Positions 3,479 to 17,490 of a DNA stretch of 64,000 bases are shown here, piece after piece. Within the stretch, counting starts at the first letter, position 1, and each line of letters starts with the position of its first letter. The translations under genes were made by a program, and so were the position numbers. The notes under the pieces were generated by a model. The model was not told where the DNA came from, ran no database searches, and saw only the letters and a program-made list of their open reading frames with translations. Source of the DNA: Candidatus Pacebacteria bacterium RIFOXYA1_FULL_38_18 (GTDB taxonomy: Bacteria > Patescibacteriota > Microgenomatia > UBA1400 > PJMF01); contig MFWV01000007.1 in the NCBI GenBank assembly GCA_001787405.1, forward strand, positions 15,694-79,693. The letters run 5' to 3'.

Positions 3479-4801
3479 ATGAACAAAGATCAAGTTTTTA
3501 AATTAATCGAAAAAGAAGAAGCGCGCCAGAAAAAAATGATTGGCCTTATTCCTTCTGAAAATCATATTTCTCCAGAGGTTTCATCAGTATTATCCAGCTC
3601 GCTTTCTAGTAAATATGCCGAGGGCTATCCTCGCCGTCGTTATTATGAAGGCAATCAAATAATTGACGAGATTGAGCTTTTAGCTCAGGAACGAATTAAA
3701 AAATTGTTTAATGTACCTCACGCCAACGTACAGCCTTATTCTGGTTCGCCAGCCAATAGCGCGGTGCAGTTTGCTTTGCTGGAAACCGGGGATACGATGA
3801 TGGGTTTGGCGTTGTCTGGTGGGGGACATTTGACCCACGGTCATCCCAAAGTAACGTTTTCTGGTAAATACTTTAACTCGGTGCAATATGGTCTGGATAA
3901 GAATGACCGAATTGATTTTGATCAAGTGCATGAATTGGCCAGTAAACATCGGCCTAAGTTGATGATCATTGGCAACACTGCCTATCCATTTGTAATGGAC
4001 TTTGAGCGTTTTCGAAAAATTGCTGACGAAGTTGGAGCTTGGGTATTAGCGGACATTTCTCATGTGACTGGTCTAGTAGTGACTGGAGAGCATCCTTCTC
4101 CCGTGCCACATGTTGATTTGATCATGAGTACCACCCACAAGACTTTTCGTGGGCCACGTGGCGCCATGATTTTGGTGACTCAGCGAGGTTTGGATAGAGA
4201 TCCAAAATTGGCCGAGAAAATCGATCAAGCTGTTTTTCCAGCTTTGCAGGGAGGTCCGCACAATGCTACTACTGCTGGAATTGCCGTTGCTGCAGCAGAG
4301 GCAATGAAGCCTGAGTTCAAAAAATATGGTCAACAAATCAGGAAAAACGCCGATACTTTGGCTAAAGCCTTGCAGGATAGAGGACTTAAACTAGTTGGCA
4401 ATGGCACAGAGACTCATTTAATGTTGATTGATTTGACCAATTACAGTAAAGGCATGGGTCTGCAAGTGGCTTTTGCTATGGACGTGGCAGGCATGTATGC
4501 CAATCGCAACACCATTCCTCATGAACCGGTTTCACCATTTTATCCGTCTGGAGTTCGTCTGGGCACACCGATGGTAACTACTAGAGGGATGAAAGAAGCA
4601 GAAATGAAACAGATTGCTGATTGGATTGCTAGAGTCGTAGAAGAAGTCAAAGATGAAGTATTGCCAAGCGACAAAACCGAGAGACGAACTTTCATCAAGA
4701 CTTTTCGAGCCAAGGCTTTGCAAAATAAAAACTTATTGGCCATTCGTCGCGAAGTAGAGACTATGGCTAGTAAATATCCCTTGTTTACTTGGGGTAAGTA
4801 A
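3479..4801 (+). CDS. glyA: serine hydroxymethyltransferase
   Basis: Matches SKYAEGYPRRRYYEGNQ, VQPYSGSPAN and LSGGGHLTHG over the full 440-aa length. Confidence 0.9.
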   Translation: MNKDQVFKLIEKEEARQKKMIGLIPSENHISPEVSSVLSSSLSSKYAEGYPRRRYYEGNQIIDEIELLAQERIKKLFNVPHANVQPYSGSPANSAVQFALLETGDTMMGLALSGGGHLTHGHPKVTFSGKYFNSVQYGLDKNDRIDFDQVHELASKHRPKLMIIGNTAYPFVMDFERFRKIADEVGAWVLADISHVTGLVVTGEHPSPVPHVDLIMSTTHKTFRGPRGAMILVTQRGLDRDPKLAEKIDQAVFPALQGGPHNATTAGIAVAAAEAMKPEFKKYGQQIRKNADTLAKALQDRGLKLVGNGTETHLMLIDLTNYSKGMGLQVAFAMDVAGMYANRNTIPHEPVSPFYPSGVRLGTPMVTTRGMKEAEMKQIADWIARVVEEVKDEVLPSDKTERRTFIKTFRAKALQNKNLLAIRREVETMASKYPLFTWGK

Positions 4802-10200: not shown

Positions 10201-10761
10201 ATGTCTGGTCATAGTAAATGGAGTACTATCAAACACAAAAAAGCGGCCACCGACGCAGTCAAAGGCAAGATTTTTGGTCAATTGTCACGCCAAATCAGGG
10301 TAGCTACCAAAGAAGGGGGATCAGGAGATCCTCAGCTCAATGCAGCTTTGCGCACTGTTTTGGAAAAAGCCAGATCAGAAAACTTGCCCAAAGACAAAAT
10401 CACCAAAGCCATCAATGCTGGTTTGGGCAAAGGCACTGGCGGGGAAATGCGGGAAATTGTTTATGAGGGGTTTGGTCAAGGCGGAATTGGTTTCTTGGCT
10501 GTGGTGGTAACTGATAATGCCAATCGCACCACTTCAGAAGTCAAAAATATTTTCAATAAATTCCAGGGCTCAGTAGGTTCTCCTGGCTCAGTGGCCTACA
10601 TGTTTGTCAGAAATCCAGAGGGTGGTTATATTTGTACTATGCCGATGACAGTGGCGGACTCAGCTCAGCAAAAAGCTTTGCAAAACTTGATGAATGAACT
10701 GAGAGAAAATGATGATGTTGAGGAAGTTTTTTGTTCAGGAGAATGGCCAGAGAAAGAGTAG
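10201..10761 (+). CDS. YebC/PmpR (TACO1) family transcriptional regulatory protein, short 186-aa form
   Basis: MSGHSKWSTIKHKKAATDAVKGKIF... is the hallmark N-terminus of the YebC family. Confidence 0.85.
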   Translation: MSGHSKWSTIKHKKAATDAVKGKIFGQLSRQIRVATKEGGSGDPQLNAALRTVLEKARSENLPKDKITKAINAGLGKGTGGEMREIVYEGFGQGGIGFLAVVVTDNANRTTSEVKNIFNKFQGSVGSPGSVAYMFVRNPEGGYICTMPMTVADSAQQKALQNLMNELRENDDVEEVFCSGEWPEKE

Positions 10762-10812: not shown

Positions 10813-11580
10813 ATGCGCCGAAGAGAAAAATTTGTTTTTGCTGCTACTTTGCTGAGTTTGGGATTATTATTAATCCAATATTTTGGAGTGGAGTGGCGCT
10901 ATTGGGCTTTTGCTATTTTTATGATTACTACTTATTTTGTTTCAGCTTGGGCGTTGACTGATGATTTACAACCCCATGAATGGTTGACTATTTTGCCTTT
11001 CCCTGCCTTGTACGCTGGATCGGTTTCTTTATTTTACTTTTTGCTACCTAGTGCATTTTTGACTAGAGTTTTAATTTTAGCTTTATTTGGTGTTGGAATG
11101 TATGGCTTATTTCTTACCAGTAACATTTTTTCAGTTGCCAAAGGTCGTACCATTCAGTTATTGTATGCTGCCCATGCTGTAGGCTTGTTTTTCACCCTTT
11201 TTACCTCCATGCTGTTCACCAATGCTATTTTTTCCTTAAAATTGCCTTTTTACACCAATGGTGTCCTAGTTGGTCTAATTCATTTTCCTCTGATTCTAAT
11301 GAGTTTGTGGTCGATTAAACTGGAACCATTAATTAGTCGTGCAATCTGGAGTTTTTCTTTATTGCTGACCTTGTTATTGATTGAACTAGTAATTTTGTTT
11401 TCACTTTTACCTTTGCCGGCTTGGCATGTGGCCTTATTTGTAATGGGCTTTTTGTATATTGGTTTGGGCGTGTTACAGAGTCAAATTAGAGAGCGACTAT
11501 TTCAAAATACAGCCAATGAGTATTCATTGGTGGCCATTTTCTTGGGCTTAATCTTCTTGATTTTATTTCCGTGGAAATAA
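10813..11580 (+). CDS. hypothetical polytopic membrane protein
   Basis: About 7 hydrophobic helices over 255 aa; no family recognised. Confidence 0.4.
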   Translation: MRRREKFVFAATLLSLGLLLIQYFGVEWRYWAFAIFMITTYFVSAWALTDDLQPHEWLTILPFPALYAGSVSLFYFLLPSAFLTRVLILALFGVGMYGLFLTSNIFSVAKGRTIQLLYAAHAVGLFFTLFTSMLFTNAIFSLKLPFYTNGVLVGLIHFPLILMSLWSIKLEPLISRAIWSFSLLLTLLLIELVILFSLLPLPAWHVALFVMGFLYIGLGVLQSQIRERLFQNTANEYSLVAIFLGLIFLILFPWK

Positions 11581-11651
11581 AAATACTCGTTTTCAATGAG
11601 GCTTCAAGATTTTTGGGGCCTGATCAGTGTTGCTTGAGTTTTAATCACTGT

Positions 11652-11680
11652 TTTTTTAGCCTGGTATCCAGGCTAAAAAA
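11652..11680. repeat. 29-bp perfect palindrome TTTTTTAGCCTGG-TAT-CCAGGCTAAAAAA
   Basis: Read directly. Thirteen-bp arms flank a 3-bp centre. It shares the AGCCTGG/CCAGGCT core with the palindrome at 12066. Confidence 0.6.
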
Positions 11681-12065
11681 TAAGAGTGGAGGAGGCCAGA
11701 AGTAGCCAGATTAGGGTGATTAGGTTTGGTTTCGGAATTGGTTAGTCTTGAGTGTCCTTCAAGAGACTTGGTAGTTAAAAGAAATCAATTAAAAACATTT
11801 TTCAAGATTTAAAAATTAAATTAAGCTTAAAAATAGGGAAGTGTGAAGCGAAAAAAAGGGTGCCCATCCAGATAGGGAAGAGAATAATGATATAGTTTGA
11901 TACATTGTGGAAAACTCTAATAAATTATAGGATTTCTCGTGAAAATATTATAGGATCGTTATTCTAGCGTACCAGGCTAAATGATATAGTTTTATGCAGT
12001 TTCTTGGTTGTATATACCCAGTATTTGCAAGAATAATTTAAGGTCCATAGCCTGGAAGAGAGTTG

Positions 12066-12094
12066 GCATGTCCAGGCTTATAGCCTGGACATGC
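12066..12094. repeat. 29-bp perfect palindrome GCATGTCCAGGCT-TAT-AGCCTGGACATGC; candidate recombinase (dif-like) or regulator site
   Basis: Read directly. A partial third copy (ATAGCCTGGA) lies at 12048-12057. It sits about 1.1 kb upstream of the Xer-like recombinase gene. Confidence 0.5.
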
Positions 12095-13146
12095 CTGAAT
12101 ATTAGTCATCAGTCGATTGGAGAAGAAGAACACAAAAAACCCGAATGACCGTTTTTGGCCGGTTTGAAAGGATCGCTATCTGGCACGAGAGAAGTATCTT
12201 TAAAGGAAAACTAATAAAGATAAATATTTGTACAAAAAGAGAGTGGCAGGGTACTCTCACTCCCTTTTGCTTTATCCTCAATCTCTCTAACTGACTATGT
12301 CGCACAATATAACTTTTACGACGTAATGTCAGGCTAAAACTGAAAAGCGCAAATTTCACTATTTTAATATTCTTTGACTATTATCTTGATTTATCCGATC
12401 TTTACTCTGAATTGGTTTCTTATTGCTTCTCTTCTTCTTATTAATTTATTAATTAATGATGGAGCTTGGCAAATTTCTTGAGGTTTATATCTGGTTTTAC
12501 TTGATTTATCTTTGAGTGAATATTCTGACAAAATCTTTACCAATTGAGCAATTTATCAGTGGCTTATTGAGGGGTTCAAGTTTCAAAATCAGCTTTAGAA
12601 ACCCAGCCAAACCATGTGAACGTTTTTGAAACAAAAGATTGATATATCAATCTAATTTTCTTCAATGATAGATAGATCGTTTTTAATAAAAAAAGCCGTT
12701 TTTGAGCTATTAGAACGGCTCAAAAAACTTTGGTCGGTAAGGATTGAGTTGGCGATCAGATCGACAATCAGCTGAAGTCAAATTTGACAAATTTATTGTA
12801 AGTAAAATTTGGATGAGTTTCGATAAAACTTAATTAGCAAAACATTGATTGATTGTTAATTAATCGTTTTTTGAAAAACAGTTTGAATTTTTATTAAGCG
12901 AAAGATTCTTTGAATTAAATAATTTACAATCAGACTCTCGGCTTTTATTAAAAAGTCTCTTGAGAAAGCCAAAGTCCGTTTTTACTTAAAAGTTACGATC
13001 GATCAAACTTGGGAATCTCAGATGCATAAAGGAATTAAAATTGATTTATCAGGACTTTTAAGCGATTTTGGCTTTTAGCAGTAATTTAACTGCTCTGACA
13101 ATGACTTATAGTATCTCAACTAATTTTCAAGCAATTTTTCTCGACT

Positions 13147-13175
13147 TTGACTATACTCAGTTTTTCTTTTACGAT
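13147..13175 (+). promoter_or_regulatory. candidate sigma70 promoter TTGACT, 17-bp spacer, TACGAT, for the Xer-like gene
   Basis: Hexamers and spacing read directly. A GAGAGGAG RBS precedes the ATG at 13187. Confidence 0.35.
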
Positions 13176-13186
13176 GAGAGGAGCCT

Positions 13187-14125
13187 ATGGCAATTACTAC
13201 TTCTCCATCCCCTGCTTTGATCGAATTCCTCGAGTCACTCGAAGTAGAGCGCAATCTCTCCCCTCTTACTTTGCGCAACTATCATCATTATTTACGTCGT
13301 TTTATTGATTGGTTTACCAATCAGGGCCATCATGACCTCAAGGAGCTCGACAGAGATATCTTGAGGAAATATCGAGTTTTTCTCTCTAGATATTCAGATG
13401 AACAAGGCAGAACTTTATCCAAAAAAACCCAGAGTTATCATATTATTTCTCTGCGCTCTTGGTTTAAGTGGTTGACCAAGAATGATGCTGAAGTCTTAAA
13501 CTCCGAAAAAATAGAGTTGCCCAAGGCAGAATCAACACCGATGAAGTTTGTTTCTGCCGAGAAGATTCAGCGCCTACTCAATGAACCTGATCTGAGCAAA
13601 CCCAAGGGCTTGCGAGATCGGGCTATTTTGGAAGTGCTTTTTTCGACCGGCTTGCGGGTTAGTGAATTAGTTGGCCTCAATCAAGATCAAATCGACCTTA
13701 ATCGACGAGAATTTGGAGTGATTGGTAAAGGTCGCCGGCCCAGAGTGGTATTTTTGAGCGATGAAGCGGCCGATTGGCTGACTCGCTGGCTCAACACGCG
13801 TCAAGATAATTGGCGGCCAGTCTTCACTCGCTTTTCTGGGAAGAAACCAGACCTTTTGGCTGATGGTGAGGAGATGCGTTTGACGACTAGAAGCGTGCAG
13901 AGATTGGTAGATAGATATAGTCGGAGAGCTCGCCTGCCCATCAAGCTATCACCTCACGGCATTCGTCATAGTTTTGCTACGGATTTACTGAGTAATGGTG
14001 CTGGCTTGAGAGATGTTCAAGAAATGTTGGGTCATAAAAACATTGCCACTACTCAGATTTACACCCACGTTACTCAGCCCCAACTGCGCAAAGTTCATGA
14101 GAAGCATCACTCAAAGACACATTAG
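13187..14125 (+). CDS. XerC/XerD-family tyrosine site-specific recombinase
   Basis: N-terminal core-binding domain (LSPLTLRNYHHYLRRF). The catalytic region has RDRAILEVLFSTGLRVSE, HGIRHSFAT and LGHKNIATTQIYTHV (R...H-x-x-R...Y). Confidence 0.8.
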   Translation: MAITTSPSPALIEFLESLEVERNLSPLTLRNYHHYLRRFIDWFTNQGHHDLKELDRDILRKYRVFLSRYSDEQGRTLSKKTQSYHIISLRSWFKWLTKNDAEVLNSEKIELPKAESTPMKFVSAEKIQRLLNEPDLSKPKGLRDRAILEVLFSTGLRVSELVGLNQDQIDLNRREFGVIGKGRRPRVVFLSDEAADWLTRWLNTRQDNWRPVFTRFSGKKPDLLADGEEMRLTTRSVQRLVDRYSRRARLPIKLSPHGIRHSFATDLLSNGAGLRDVQEMLGHKNIATTQIYTHVTQPQLRKVHEKHHSKTH

Positions 14126-14694: not shown

Positions 14695-17490
14695 TTATTT
14701 TTCTTCACCTTCTCCCAGTTCGGAAGTTAGAGCGACGGCTACGACCGGATTATCATCTTTGAGTTTCATTAGGATTACTCCCTGGGTTGGTCTAGTCAGA
14801 ACAGGAATGGATTTCTTGCTAATTGGCAGTTTAATGGTTTGACCATCTTGAGTGCTGATGACCAATTCACGATGTTGATCAGTCAAGACTCGTGCAGAAG
14901 CAACTTTGCCGGTTTTTTTGGTAATTTCCGAGACTTTTACACCTAGTCCAGAGCGTTTTTGCACTGGGTAGTGTTTGAGTTGAGTACGTTTACCCAAGCC
15001 GTTTTCCGTGACGATGAGTAATGAAGTTTTTTCCAAATGATCTTTGTTATCTGGAAAAGCCTCTACTCCCACTACAAAATCACCTTTTTTGAGAGTAATG
15101 CCTTTAACACCCTTGGTATCTCTTTGAGAAGACTTTACTTCTTCTTCGCTAAAGCGAATTGATTTTCCGTCATGAGTAATGAGCATTAAGTGATCTTTGC
15201 CTGAAGTAACTCGACCCCAAACCAATTCATCGCCGTTATTGAGAGTGATGGCTACGATACCATTTTGACGAATGTTGTCGTAAAGCTTGACAGCGGTTTT
15301 TTTGACCAATCCTTCACGAGTGGCCAAAGTAATGAAATGCTCGGCGTCCTTTTCTGGATTAACAACCAGTACGGAGCGGATGCTTTCTTCTGGTTGGAGA
15401 TTCAATAAATTGACAATGGCTGTACCCTTTGCCTGTCTGGAGGCTTCTGGGATTTCATAAGTTCTGGTGCGGAAGACTCTGCCTTGATTGGTAAATAACA
15501 AGAGTGTGTCATGAGTATTACAACTGATGATGGCTTGCAAGACATCTTCTTCTTTCATTTTAAGTCCGGCACTCCCCTTTCCTCCTCTGGATTGGGAACG
15601 TAGCGCACTCGGGTTCATTCGTTTAATGTAGCCACTTTCAGTTAGAGTAATGACCGCTCCTTCATTGGCTACCAAATCTTCTTCGCTAAATTCACCGATT
15701 TTTCCTCTGACTAGTTTAGTCAAACGTTCATCACCATAGGTTTTGATGGTTTCTTGAGTTTCATCAATAATGACATTGAGAATATCTTGAGGAGAAGTTA
15801 GCAGAATGAGTAATTGATCCATCCGTTCTTTGATGGTTTTATATTCATCTTCAATTTTCTGTCGCTCCAGAGCAGCTAAGCGTTTTAGTTGCATTTCCAA
15901 AATAGCCGTTGCTTGTAGCTCGCTTAGTGCAAATTTCTTCATCAATGCTTCGCGAGCGGTGTCGGTGTCTTTGGATTTTTTGATGGTTTCGATTACATCA
16001 TCCAAGTTTTTTAAGGCAATCAATAGGCCTTCTAAAATATGAGCGCGACTTCTGGCTTCTGACAATTCAAATTGACTGCGTCTGACGATGACTAATTGAC
16101 GGTGGATGATATATTCGCGCAAAACTTGGCGCAAATTCATCAACTGTGGTGTGCCGTCGGAATTAAGAGCCACCATGTTCATTGAGAAAGTGCTTTGTAG
16201 CTCGGAATATTTAAAAAGTTTATTAAGAACTACTTTGGGTCGAGAAGCACGATTGAGTTCAATAACCATGCGCATACCGGTTCGATCCGATTCATCGCGC
16301 AAATTTCTAATACCTTCTATTTTTTTGTTTTTGACCAGATCAGCAATTTTCATCAAAAGCCGAGCTTTGTTAACTTGATATGGTAGTTCGGTCACTACGA
16401 TCTTGAAGTTATTTTTGCTATCTTCTTCAATATTGGCTTTGGCTCGGACCACGATTCTGCCTTTGCCAGTGCGATAGGCTTCCTGAATTTCTTTGAAGTT
16501 ATACATGATGCCCGCTGTGGGAAAGTCTGGTCCTTGAATGTGAGTCATCAGGGTTTCAAACTCTATCTCACTATTAAATTCTCCAGCCAAACTAATCGGT
16601 TCGACTGCTAGCACGGTATCAATGGCTTTGTTGTTTGCCAGTTCTGGTCCGGTAGTAGCGGATTTATTAGTTTTTTTCAAAGCCTCGGTTGGCAGAATAG
16701 GTTCTTCCACTTTTGCTTTGCCCTCTTGGATCATGGCTATAATGGCATTGCTGATTTCGATTAAGTTGTGCGGTGGGATCTTGGTTGCCATACCCACAGC
16801 AATACCCTCTGAACCCATTAGTAATAAATTGGGCAAACGAGTGGGAAGAACGGATGGTTCTTGGAGTGAGCCATCAAAATTATCGACAAACGGGACGGTA
16901 TTTTTATTGATATCAGCTAATAATTCTGTAGAGATTTTGGCTAGTCTAGCCTCGGTGTAACGCATAGCAGCGGGACTATCTCCGTCTACAGAACCAAAGT
17001 TTCCTTGTCCATCAACCAAAGGATAGCGCATGCTAAATTCTTGAGCCAAACGAACCATGGCCATATATACGGATGAATCGCCGTGGGGGTGATATTTACC
17101 CAAGACGTCTCCCACGATTCTGGCAGACTTTTTATAGGCGCTGCCAGGCGTGATGCCACTCTTGAACATGGAGTATAAAATGCGTCGGTGGACCGGCTTC
17201 ATGCCGTCTCTGACATCTGGCAGCGCCCGAGAAACAATCACACTCATGGCGTAATCCAGATATGATTTCTCCATTTCGGTCACGATCGAAGTATGCTTTA
17301 CGTTGCCATAACGAGTTTTTTCGATCGAACCCATCAAATGACCATTGGTTGGAGCAGTCTCTTCGTTTTCACTCTCCGTTTGCTCAATCAACTCGGCCTG
17401 CTCATCAGATGAATCGAGCTCTTGACTTATGGAGTCAACCGAATCTGAGTCTTGTTCTGCTGGAATTAATTTATCTTTTTCATCTGCCAT
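14695..17490 (-). CDS. gyrA: DNA gyrase subunit A
   Basis: [41 protein letters not shown]..., including the active-site Tyr region. There is an acidic N-terminal extension and C-terminal beta-pinwheel repeats. Confidence 0.9.

Follow-up and report, generated by a model that had tools for sequence, protein, structure and literature searches.

Which sequence does the recombinase encoded at this locus act on? The 64,000-nucleotide stretch of the genome of Candidatus Pacebacteria bacterium RIFOXYA1_FULL_38_18 analysed here (contig MFWV01000007.1; hereafter the window, numbered from its first nucleotide) carries a gene for an Xer-type tyrosine recombinase, xer, preceded by a long spacer free of open reading frames (ORFs) that holds two palindromes. 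The initial annotation took the second palindrome, at 12066–12094, for a dif-like site of the adjacent recombinase. Our analysis indicates that the dimer-resolution (dif) site is probably a different sequence, at 12297–12324, and neither palindrome; both palindromes are head-to-head pairs of a 9-bp motif, CCAGGCTAA/TTAGCCTGG, which is iterated within ~800 bp on either side of the site in a conserved ORF-free spacer. The principal features are as follows.

11581–13186, no strand: ORF-free spacer of 1,606 bp between a DUF5656-like 255-aa gene and xer
11652–11680, no strand: palindrome 1, TTTTTTAGCCTGG-TAT-CCAGGCTAAAAAA, perfect 13-bp arms (11652–11664 and 11668–11680)
12065–12095, no strand: palindrome 2, the dif candidate of the initial annotation, GGCATGTCCAGGCT-TAT-AGCCTGGACATGCC, perfect 14-bp arms (12065–12078 and 12082–12095)
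12297–12324, plus strand: candidate dif site of 28 bp, ATGTCGCACAA / TATAAC / TTTTACGACGT, 862 bp upstream of xer
13187–14125, plus strand: xer, 312-aa tyrosine recombinase with Pfam Phage_integrase and SAM-like domains

A conserved 28-bp site upstream of xer

The spacer contains no ORF of 100 aa or more, and the gene callers used on the source contigs also left it empty. Relatives preserve the gene order: yebC, the 255-aa gene, a long empty gap and then xer. Eighty loci from species-representative genomes (denoted L with a number below) were fetched with the Xer protein, at 56–96% Xer identity, and their gaps were compared by BLAST. A short block equivalent to 12296–12326 recurred in nearly all loci, even at the lowest Xer identity of 56%; the 12066 palindrome was not among the conserved blocks. 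The consensus extracted from the block was ATGTCGCACAA-TAWWAC-TTTTRCGACRT. With up to 8 mismatches allowed (most loci had 4 or fewer), the 28-mer was found once per locus in 70 of the 80 loci, 0.36–3.9 kb upstream of xer, and it is unique in the window. Each of positions 1–28 carries 1–2 bits of information, and the flanks carry ~0–0.3 bits.

The site has the 11-6-11 layout typical of Xer core sites (whose centres measure 6–8 bp), in which two 11-bp arms form an imperfect inverted repeat round a 6-bp centre; the arms differ from each other at one position in the family consensus and at three in this genome. Across the loci there is hardly any variation in the arms, and the 6-bp centre differs between species (TATAAC, TATTAC, TAATAC, TATACA, TGTATC). 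In four loci only the ~30-bp site is inverted, with the neighbouring blocks collinear, which indicates an autonomous DNA element and not a part of a transcript. In the proposed mechanism, two monomers of the adjacent Xer would bind the two nearly identical arms, strand exchange would take place across the 6-bp central region, and G-rich octamers resembling FtsK-orienting polar sequences (KOPS) would steer FtsK to the site from both sides. The sequences directly show that these elements exist, how they are enriched and conserved, how the site is built, its copy number in the DNA covered and the polarity switch described below. Binding and cleavage of the 28-mer by Xer, like FtsK dependence, we infer, the indirect signs of binding being the linkage of the site to xer and arm-like half-sites in the xer promoters of relatives.

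The Xer protein scored almost equally against the NCBIfam models for XerC (253.6 bits, cut-off 335) and XerD (251.4 bits, cut-off 330), both under cut-off, and can therefore be assigned to neither. It fell just under the cut-off for XerA (207 against 220) and far from that for XerS (128 bits against 267). Among solved structures, E. coli XerD (1a0p) came closest (E 7e-43), and the alignment brought the catalytic motifs R, K, HxxR, H and Y into register. Homologues at E ≤ 1e-30 numbered more than 7,900, the top 120 being at least 72% identical; the close ones were annotated as Pacebacteria, Woesebacteria or Patescibacteria, which places the organism among groundwater bacteria of the candidate phyla radiation. 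No second xer-like gene or paralogue was found in the 64-kb window. The earlier proposal of a single Xer with an adjacent core site is thus upheld in that the region has one Xer-type gene with a candidate site beside it; it had picked the wrong sequence.

A further arm-like sequence lies immediately in front of the gene.

13166–13174, plus strand: CTTTTACGA, which repeats 9 nt of the dif-like site's right arm and lies 12 nt ahead of the xer ATG

This is possibly an Xer half-site, on weak evidence in this genome. In most of the more distant relatives (L059–L087), an arm-like half-site, ATGTCGCA(C/A)AAT, is present in the xer promoter 10–100 bp upstream of the gene, between the TTGACA −35 element and the −10 region. 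Its placement suggests autoregulation by Xer and is as expected if Xer recognises the arm and controls its own promoter.

Convergent polarity of KOPS-like octamers

For strand counts, the genome stretch was extended to 83 kb (−9512 to 73639; the window plus L241 and L243). The octamer GRGNAGRG was chosen since purine-rich conserved blocks in the gap resemble KOPS. In this genome it occurred 14:0 (plus:minus) over the 21.8 kb left of the site and 4:27 over the 61.3 kb to its right; AGGGGA/GGGGAG occurred 15:0 and 3:34, respectively. Pooled over 69 related loci, GRGNAGRG counts were 248:17 left of the site and 73:249 right of it, and the switch fell within 500 bp of it. The switch persisted separately in plus-strand genes, minus-strand genes and intergenic DNA, and right of the site the octamer favoured the template strand of plus-strand genes (76:25). 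We rejected a coding-strand artefact, as the polarity holds after stratification by gene strand. An unbiased ranking of all XXXNXXXX words in 114 non-redundant loci of other lineages (618 kb) placed GGGNAGGG, the E. coli KOPS, first, with 90 convergent and 8 divergent copies (z 8.3).

The palindromes and the 9-bp motif

Direct reading of the sequence bears out that there are two perfect palindromes with swapped cores: they have a TAT centre in common, and their inner heptamers are exchanged (AGCCTGG..CCAGGCT against CCAGGCT..AGCCTGG). The initially annotated size of 29 bp with 13-bp arms is right for 11652–11680, and the second palindrome is one pair longer. Its annotated distance of about 1.1 kb from xer agrees with the 1.09 kb between 12094 and 13187. 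The palindromes are real and not products of chance. In a window-wide scan for close inverted repeats, these two alone had perfect arms of at least 13 nt and a short spacer; folded as single strands, they reach −18.0 and −12.5 kcal/mol (z-scores of −8.2 and −7.0). The window holds 12 copies of CCAGGCT; shuffled sequences average 5.6 ± 2.1, and none of 100 shuffles reached 12. Six of the 12 copies lie inside 431 bp (11658–12088).

Palindrome 1, which begins 72 bp beyond the stop codon of the 255-aa gene, is an inverted pair of CCAGGCTAA (TTAGCCTGG-TAT-CCAGGCTAA) with an A/T extension, and palindrome 2 consists of two abutting motif copies in inverted orientation. With at most one mismatch, CCAGGCTAA has 12 copies in the window, seven of them within the 1.6-kb gap that makes up 2.5% of its length. 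The five copies outside the gap compare with ~13 expected from a rough uniform-composition estimate; over the 83 kb of genome covered, the motif is not a dispersed repeat, the outcome by which the initial annotation would have set its proposal aside. Three single copies accompany the palindromes.

11972–11980, plus strand: single motif copy CCAGGCTAA, directly upstream of the second TGATATAG copy
12047–12055, minus strand: single motif copy ATAGCCTGG
12329–12337, plus strand: motif copy TCAGGCTAA, just right of the dif-like site

The second of these is the partial third copy of the initial annotation, which exists as described and had been placed one position off, at 12048.

Across related loci, the motif is enriched 10- to 20-fold 800–200 bp left of the site (2–3.9 per kb against a background of 0.15–0.2 per kb) and again 200–400 bp to its right (1.8 per kb), in both orientations. 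Lineages without xer linkage showed no enrichment of CCAGGCTAA near the site. Single, non-palindromic copies beside the TGATATAGTTTGATA block are conserved in position and flip in orientation between subclades; at the position of 11972–11980, it is reversed in some relatives (TAGCCTGG). Copies in the deepest branches have changed jointly to TAGCCTC/TAGCTTC and are part of ~100-bp tandem units. One deep locus, L071, has five repeats of ~42 nt at 78–181 bp spacing (3578–4061; TAGCCTYGA..TTTAGCNCG-loop-CGNGCTAA), each with a hairpin flanked by TTAG..CTAA; they represent the CCAGGCTAA motif array in a deeper-branching form.

The palindromes themselves are much less widespread than the motif. In the closest relative (L004, Xer 91% identical), the left arm of palindrome 2 reads GTATCTCTTGGTT and the palindrome is gone; the alignment of the closest relatives shows that in L004 its right half (AGCCTGGA.GTGCC) is retained and its left half non-complementary. 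L010 and L031 show the reverse, with the left half (ATGTCCAGGCT) retained and the right half replaced. A CCAGG..CCTGG dyad was found in only four of 70 related loci, at scattered positions. Since the halves are kept or lost separately and the dyad is so rare, palindrome 2 is a species-specific apposition of two motif copies. The dyad of the palindrome 1 type, CCTGG-N3-CCAGG, occurs in 10 of 70 loci, all of them near relatives, at 583–702 bp to the left of the candidate dif; in one locus a TTAGCCTGG..CCAGGCTAA dyad lies 194 bp right of it. At the position of palindrome 1, L017 and L018, from another subclade, have unrelated palindromes with 16–18-bp arms.

We consider, with moderate confidence, that the palindromes and the motif most likely represent accessory protein-binding or insulating elements, a role deduced for the motif as a whole because its non-palindromic copies are conserved in sequence, free in orientation and changed in concert. 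The copies are predicted binding sites of a sequence-specific DNA-binding protein that would organise or insulate the dif region. The palindromes would be dimer sites, also able to extrude as hairpins, and palindrome 1 would additionally mark the 3' end of the upstream gene. This comes close to the other option of the initial annotation, operators for an unknown regulator, the sites here being predicted ones for a DNA-binding protein. The palindromes may thus matter mainly as a pointer to a protein–DNA system organised around dif.

Alternative explanations

Several observations weigh against placing dif at 12297–12324 with the palindromes as motif pairs. Permuted G-rich purine octamers also flip at the site (86% on the plus strand on the left, 40% on the right), so the polarity is partly compositional, and a purely compositional artefact is only partly rejected; GRGNAGRG is more extreme (94% and 22%), ranking in the top 3% among 300 permutations counted in the window. 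The pooled loci are syntenic and hence not independent. The switch is resolved to ~300 bp, which by itself cannot separate 12297 from 12066, so the choice of 12297 rests on conservation and architecture. The ftsK gene was not among the large ORFs of the window scanned by Pfam and was not looked for elsewhere in the genome. Classically, dif lies at the GC-skew inversion; here none of GC, GC3 and TA skew changes sign across the site within the 83 kb, and of 54 xer-linked loci, 50 have positive skew left of the site and 45 have it right of the site, where the skew is only lower. To our knowledge, no protein binds CCAGGCTAA. Palindrome 1 sits where other subclades have unrelated hairpins, so for this palindrome a purely structural, terminator-like role fits as well as a protein site.

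The main rival holds that the palindromes act through their hairpins alone, as terminators or insulators shielding the dif region from RNA polymerase, with CCAGGCT incidental; it has a modest chance of being right. Palindrome 1 does follow a stop codon by 72 bp, the unrelated palindromes at its position in L017 and L018 have an A6-stem-T6 form, another terminator-like hairpin precedes the dif-like site, the site lies between convergent genes in other lineages, and the hairpins are very stable. Yet a U-tract follows neither palindrome in either direction, and a terminator scan called neither of them. Palindrome 1 is no canonical terminator, because on both strands it presents a T-run before the stem and an A-run after it; palindrome 2 is followed by CTGAATATT. 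The single, non-hairpin 9-mer copies, conserved and enriched on both sides of the site, point to sequence-specific recognition. Far less credible is the initial assignment, in which the 12066–12094 palindrome, read as 11-7-11, is the dif-like core of the adjacent Xer. The palindrome stands 1.1 kb away from xer, has no second copy in the window and falls inside the ~300-bp resolution of the polarity switch, and its outer bases (ATGTC...GACAT) resemble the outer arm bases of the 12297 site. As a palindrome it is nevertheless absent from the closest relative and from 66 of 70 related loci, and dif sites are conserved over far larger distances; it forms a perfect 14-3-14 hairpin and not an 11-6-11 site, even its centre in the 11-7-11 reading, CTTATAG, being symmetric; and the better conserved 11-6-11 site is only 200 bp away. 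On these grounds it is disfavoured.

Quite unlikely, too, is a single large structured non-coding RNA with the palindromes as its helices. The long conserved ORF-free region, with many short invariant blocks between variable stretches, would suit an RNA, as would promoter-like TGATATAGT elements with a terminator-like hairpin ~370 nt downstream, and in L004 two of three changes in one motif copy keep pairing through G-U. On the other hand, no Rfam 15 family matched 11400–13300 at the gathering score or at E ≤ 10, and RNAalifold, applied to 18 sequences spanning promoter to site, detected no consensus structure; folds of individual sequences downstream of AAACCCGAA shared no shape beyond the terminal hairpin. 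The pairs CGTGAAAA/TTTTCACG, CTATAGGAC/GTCCTATAG and CCAGGCTA/TAGCCTGG switch orientation between subclades at the same place, and this, with the lone inversion of the 28-mer in four loci, argues for DNA sites and not one transcript. At the gathering score, Rfam yielded nothing beyond tRNAs in the whole window and 13 distant loci, with no match near the site in the latter, and ARAGORN found no tmRNA. The least probable explanation of all is a mobile or dispersed element, such as a miniature inverted-repeat transposable element or a repetitive extragenic palindrome, or the remnant of an integrated element. Short intergenic inverted repeats beside a tyrosine recombinase gene do recall such elements, but the motif outside the gap is at or below its rough estimate (5 against ~13), no further perfect palindrome of this class occurs in the 64 kb, and the spacer and motif order are syntenic across a class-level clade. 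Two independent assemblies, moreover, are 100% identical over the gap, with no variation in the source population.

Strand skew and replication

The initial annotation would have counted a distant GC-skew terminus against its site. None lies within −22/+61 kb, which on the classical criterion would refute a dif here, but the polar KOPS-like words do converge at this very point. Mean GC skew is +0.093 over the 21.8 kb on the left and +0.049 over the 61.3 kb on the right, and the G+T-rich words TTGGT and TGGTG are biased in the same direction on both sides of the site. The plus strand is G-rich and T-rich throughout the 83 kb despite several changes in gene orientation, and strand skew and KOPS-like polarity disagree across the 61 kb right of the site. 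In L056 and L069, G makes up 27–30% of the xer strand against 15% for C. In the xer-unlinked lineages, GC skew drops across the site from +0.014 to −0.073; the sign changes in the direction of a terminus in 17 loci and in the opposite direction in four.

The spacer also has features that would suit an origin (oriC), namely one conserved DnaA box, TTTTCACG-type boxes and an AT-rich stretch 200–600 bp left of the site. A bidirectional oriC is disfavoured, as the skew is positive to the left and to the right alike. Kadnikov et al. 2020 (PMC7143001) reported monotonic cumulative GC skew over whole chromosomes of three Microgenomates, suggested that origin and terminus lie close together, and hypothesised unidirectional replication from skew alone; they described the skew of CP011212, which is locus L015 in our set, as typical and named no dif, KOPS or origin sequence. 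Our locus resembles theirs in having the same G-rich strand left and right of the site, and it belongs to the same superphylum. An origin beside the terminus could uncouple the convergence of dif and KOPS from the skew switch. The spacer would then be a composite origin–terminus (DnaA boxes, AT-rich stretch, dif-like site and CCAGGCTAA dyads), the dyads, including the palindromes, would be sites for a polar fork-barrier or termination protein, and replication would be effectively unidirectional. We regard this as rather improbable. That FtsK-type polar words converge on the site in the xer-linked clade while the mutational strand skew keeps its sign is unexpected, and the published idea that the chromosomes of some Microgenomates are replicated mostly in one direction is now checkable with complete genomes and read-coverage profiles.

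Comparison with known Xer systems

A core site linked to the recombinase gene has been named as a possible hallmark of single-recombinase systems (PMC5357621). Like XerS/difSL of streptococci and lactococci and XerH/difH of Helicobacter and Campylobacter, the present locus has a single Xer gene (the only one in the window) with the core site nearby, imperfect inverted-repeat arms and polar words pointing at the site. Unlike XerS and XerH, the protein has the length of XerC/D (312 aa) and an XerS score below cut-off; the site is 28 bp with a 6-bp centre, where difSL is 31 bp with an 11-bp centre, and it lies 0.36–3.9 kb from the gene, hence not directly beside it, in a long, motif-rich spacer, without a GC-skew inversion in this clade.

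The 28-bp 11-6-11 architecture is common to this site and to the XerCD/dif and FtsK–KOPS system of E. coli. Counted against the established E. coli dif sequence, GGTGCGCATAATGTATATTATGTTAAAT, 14 of 28 positions are identical; the left arm and centre are alike, with CGCAnAAT.TA in common. The top convergent polar word in related lineages is the E. coli KOPS itself, and the best solved Xer relative is XerD. In contrast to E. coli, both arms are XerC-like and the conserved XerD arm TTATGTTAAAT is absent; the right arm copies the left one, as expected if one recombinase binds both halves. Only one recombinase gene was found here (in the window), its XerC and XerD scores are equal and both sub-cut-off, and the site stands beside xer with no GC-skew inversion.

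Archaeal XerA/dif likewise combines a single recombinase with a nearly palindromic 11-6-11 site. The archaeal dif was identified by the comparative criteria applied here: it is conserved, intergenic and single-copy and matches bacterial dif at 14 of 28 positions. Short polar words are directed at it, and its position is not always 180 degrees from the origin. XerA acts without FtsK, whereas the KOPS-type octamers here would imply an FtsK-like translocase; the arm sequence also differs, and the lineage is bacterial. The system would work like single-recombinase Xer modules (XerS/difSL, XerH/difH, XerA/dif), while by score it is not XerS, XerH, XerC or XerD.

For the CCAGGCTAA copies and the palindromes, the accessory sequences of the plasmid sites cer and psi and the arm-type sites of lambda att may serve as an analogy, being conserved DNA that flanks a core and carries repeated protein sites. 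Unlike at cer and psi, no ArgR-, PepA- or ArcA-type sites were recognised, and the motifs stand on both sides of the core, out to ~800 bp. Accessory sequences are normally dispensable for chromosomal dif.

Occurrence beyond the xer-linked clade

A metagenome scan with the pattern GTCGCACAATNNNNCTTTTRCGAC returned at least 120 stretches with an exact match, one match each. The 80 metagenomic matches listed all fall on different contigs, three of them 830, 473 and 346 kb long. On the metagenomic contigs (L088–L207; 30–57% GC), the site most often reads ATGTCGCACAATATATCTTTTACGACAT, and most have neither xer nor the 255-aa gene nearby. In the xer-unlinked loci the site lies in a short spacer, and genes converge on it in at least nine of 12 loci inspected. 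The 28-mer is probably the dif of many lineages resembling the candidate phyla radiation (CPR) beyond Microgenomates. Judged by these patterns, it would behave as dif across a wide range of CPR-like lineages and would have become linked to xer in the Microgenomates branch.

A further 33 contigs with an exact match were classed as viral in IMG/VR (L208–L240). These may be integrative elements exploiting dif or misclassed CPR fragments. In L209 (3338–4683) and L196 (14–1437), a distant tyrosine recombinase, 23–28% identical to Xer, lies right beside the site.

In the literature searched, we found no description of a dif site, a KOPS motif or an Xer mechanism for Patescibacteria/CPR, nor the 28-mer in print. 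These bacteria account for a large share of bacterial diversity, and hardly any have been cultured. The 28-mer could serve as a sequence landmark for the dimer-resolution point in CPR genomes and metagenome-assembled genomes, aiding assembly checks and the orientation of replichores and pointing to integrative elements that exploit Xer.

Other features of the spacer and neighbouring genes

The remaining elements of the spacer lie for the most part left of the dif-like site.

11684–11696 and 11833–11842, rightward: looser KOPS-like copies, pointing toward the dif-like site
11875–11882, plus strand: KOPS-like octamer GGGAAGAG, pointing rightward to the dif-like site
11888–11902, plus strand: 15-mer TGATATAGTTTGATA, conserved in the clade at nearly 15/15 positions, containing an extended −10-like TGnTATAGT
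11906–11914, minus strand: DnaA-box-like 9-mer TGTGGAAAA, which reads TTTTCCACA on the minus strand and is a perfect TGTGGATAA in many relatives
11925–11933 and 11948–11956: two TTATAGGAT repeats after the DnaA-box-like 9-mer
11938–11945: CGTGAAAA, downstream of the DnaA-box-like 9-mer
12137–12146, plus strand: AAACCCGAAT, almost invariant, 160–400 bp left of the dif-like site in ~54 of 60 loci
12239–12258, plus strand: terminator-like hairpin GAGAGTGGCAGGGTACTCTC with a T-rich tail, ~40 bp before the dif-like site

The 15-mer TGATATAGTTTGATA has a diverged second copy at 11982–11996 and one to three copies in relatives (three in tandem in L034); it could be a strong promoter, or tandem promoters, firing toward the dif-like site, or else a protein site. 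In place of the hairpin at 12239–12258, relatives have GC-rich hairpins of other sequence followed by TTTTG. The gap gave no parS match within 4 mismatches, and a cluster or avoidance of CCWGG methylation sites was rejected (69 CCWGG against 59 expected).

DnaA-box density over the 70 loci peaks at 3.0 per kb 400–200 bp left of the site, against a background of 0.15–0.4 per kb. A positionally conserved DnaA box (TGTGGAWAAC), with CGTGAAAA/TTTTCACG and TTATAGGAC repeats (11906–11956), varies in orientation between subclades. In L071, two TTTCACG pairs (3495–3524 and 4622–4651) form an inverted repeat that brackets the dif-like site. A DnaA box also lies ~200–270 bp from the site in ~21 of 84 xer-unlinked loci, where it may belong to a conserved neighbouring gene. 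Neither dnaA nor dnaN was seen in the 83 kb around the site; dnaB (L241, 11422–12732) is ~11 kb left of the window start, at a distance of ~23 kb from the dif-like site; gyrA, gyrB and holB are found 2–9 kb right of the site.

Between the dif-like site and xer, a conserved non-coding block at 12621–12720 includes a GCCGTTTTTGAGC..GAACGGCTC inverted repeat, and a second block at 13068–13125 is probably the xer promoter or 5' untranslated region. GyrA (14695–17490) has 931 aa, compared with 881–907 aa in relatives, and matches the topoisomerase domain in two stretches, which suggests an insertion. The YebC/TACO1 homologue (10201–10761) is only 186 aa long, its second-domain match ending at profile position 55 of 160, and this short form (184–192 aa) is kept in relatives.

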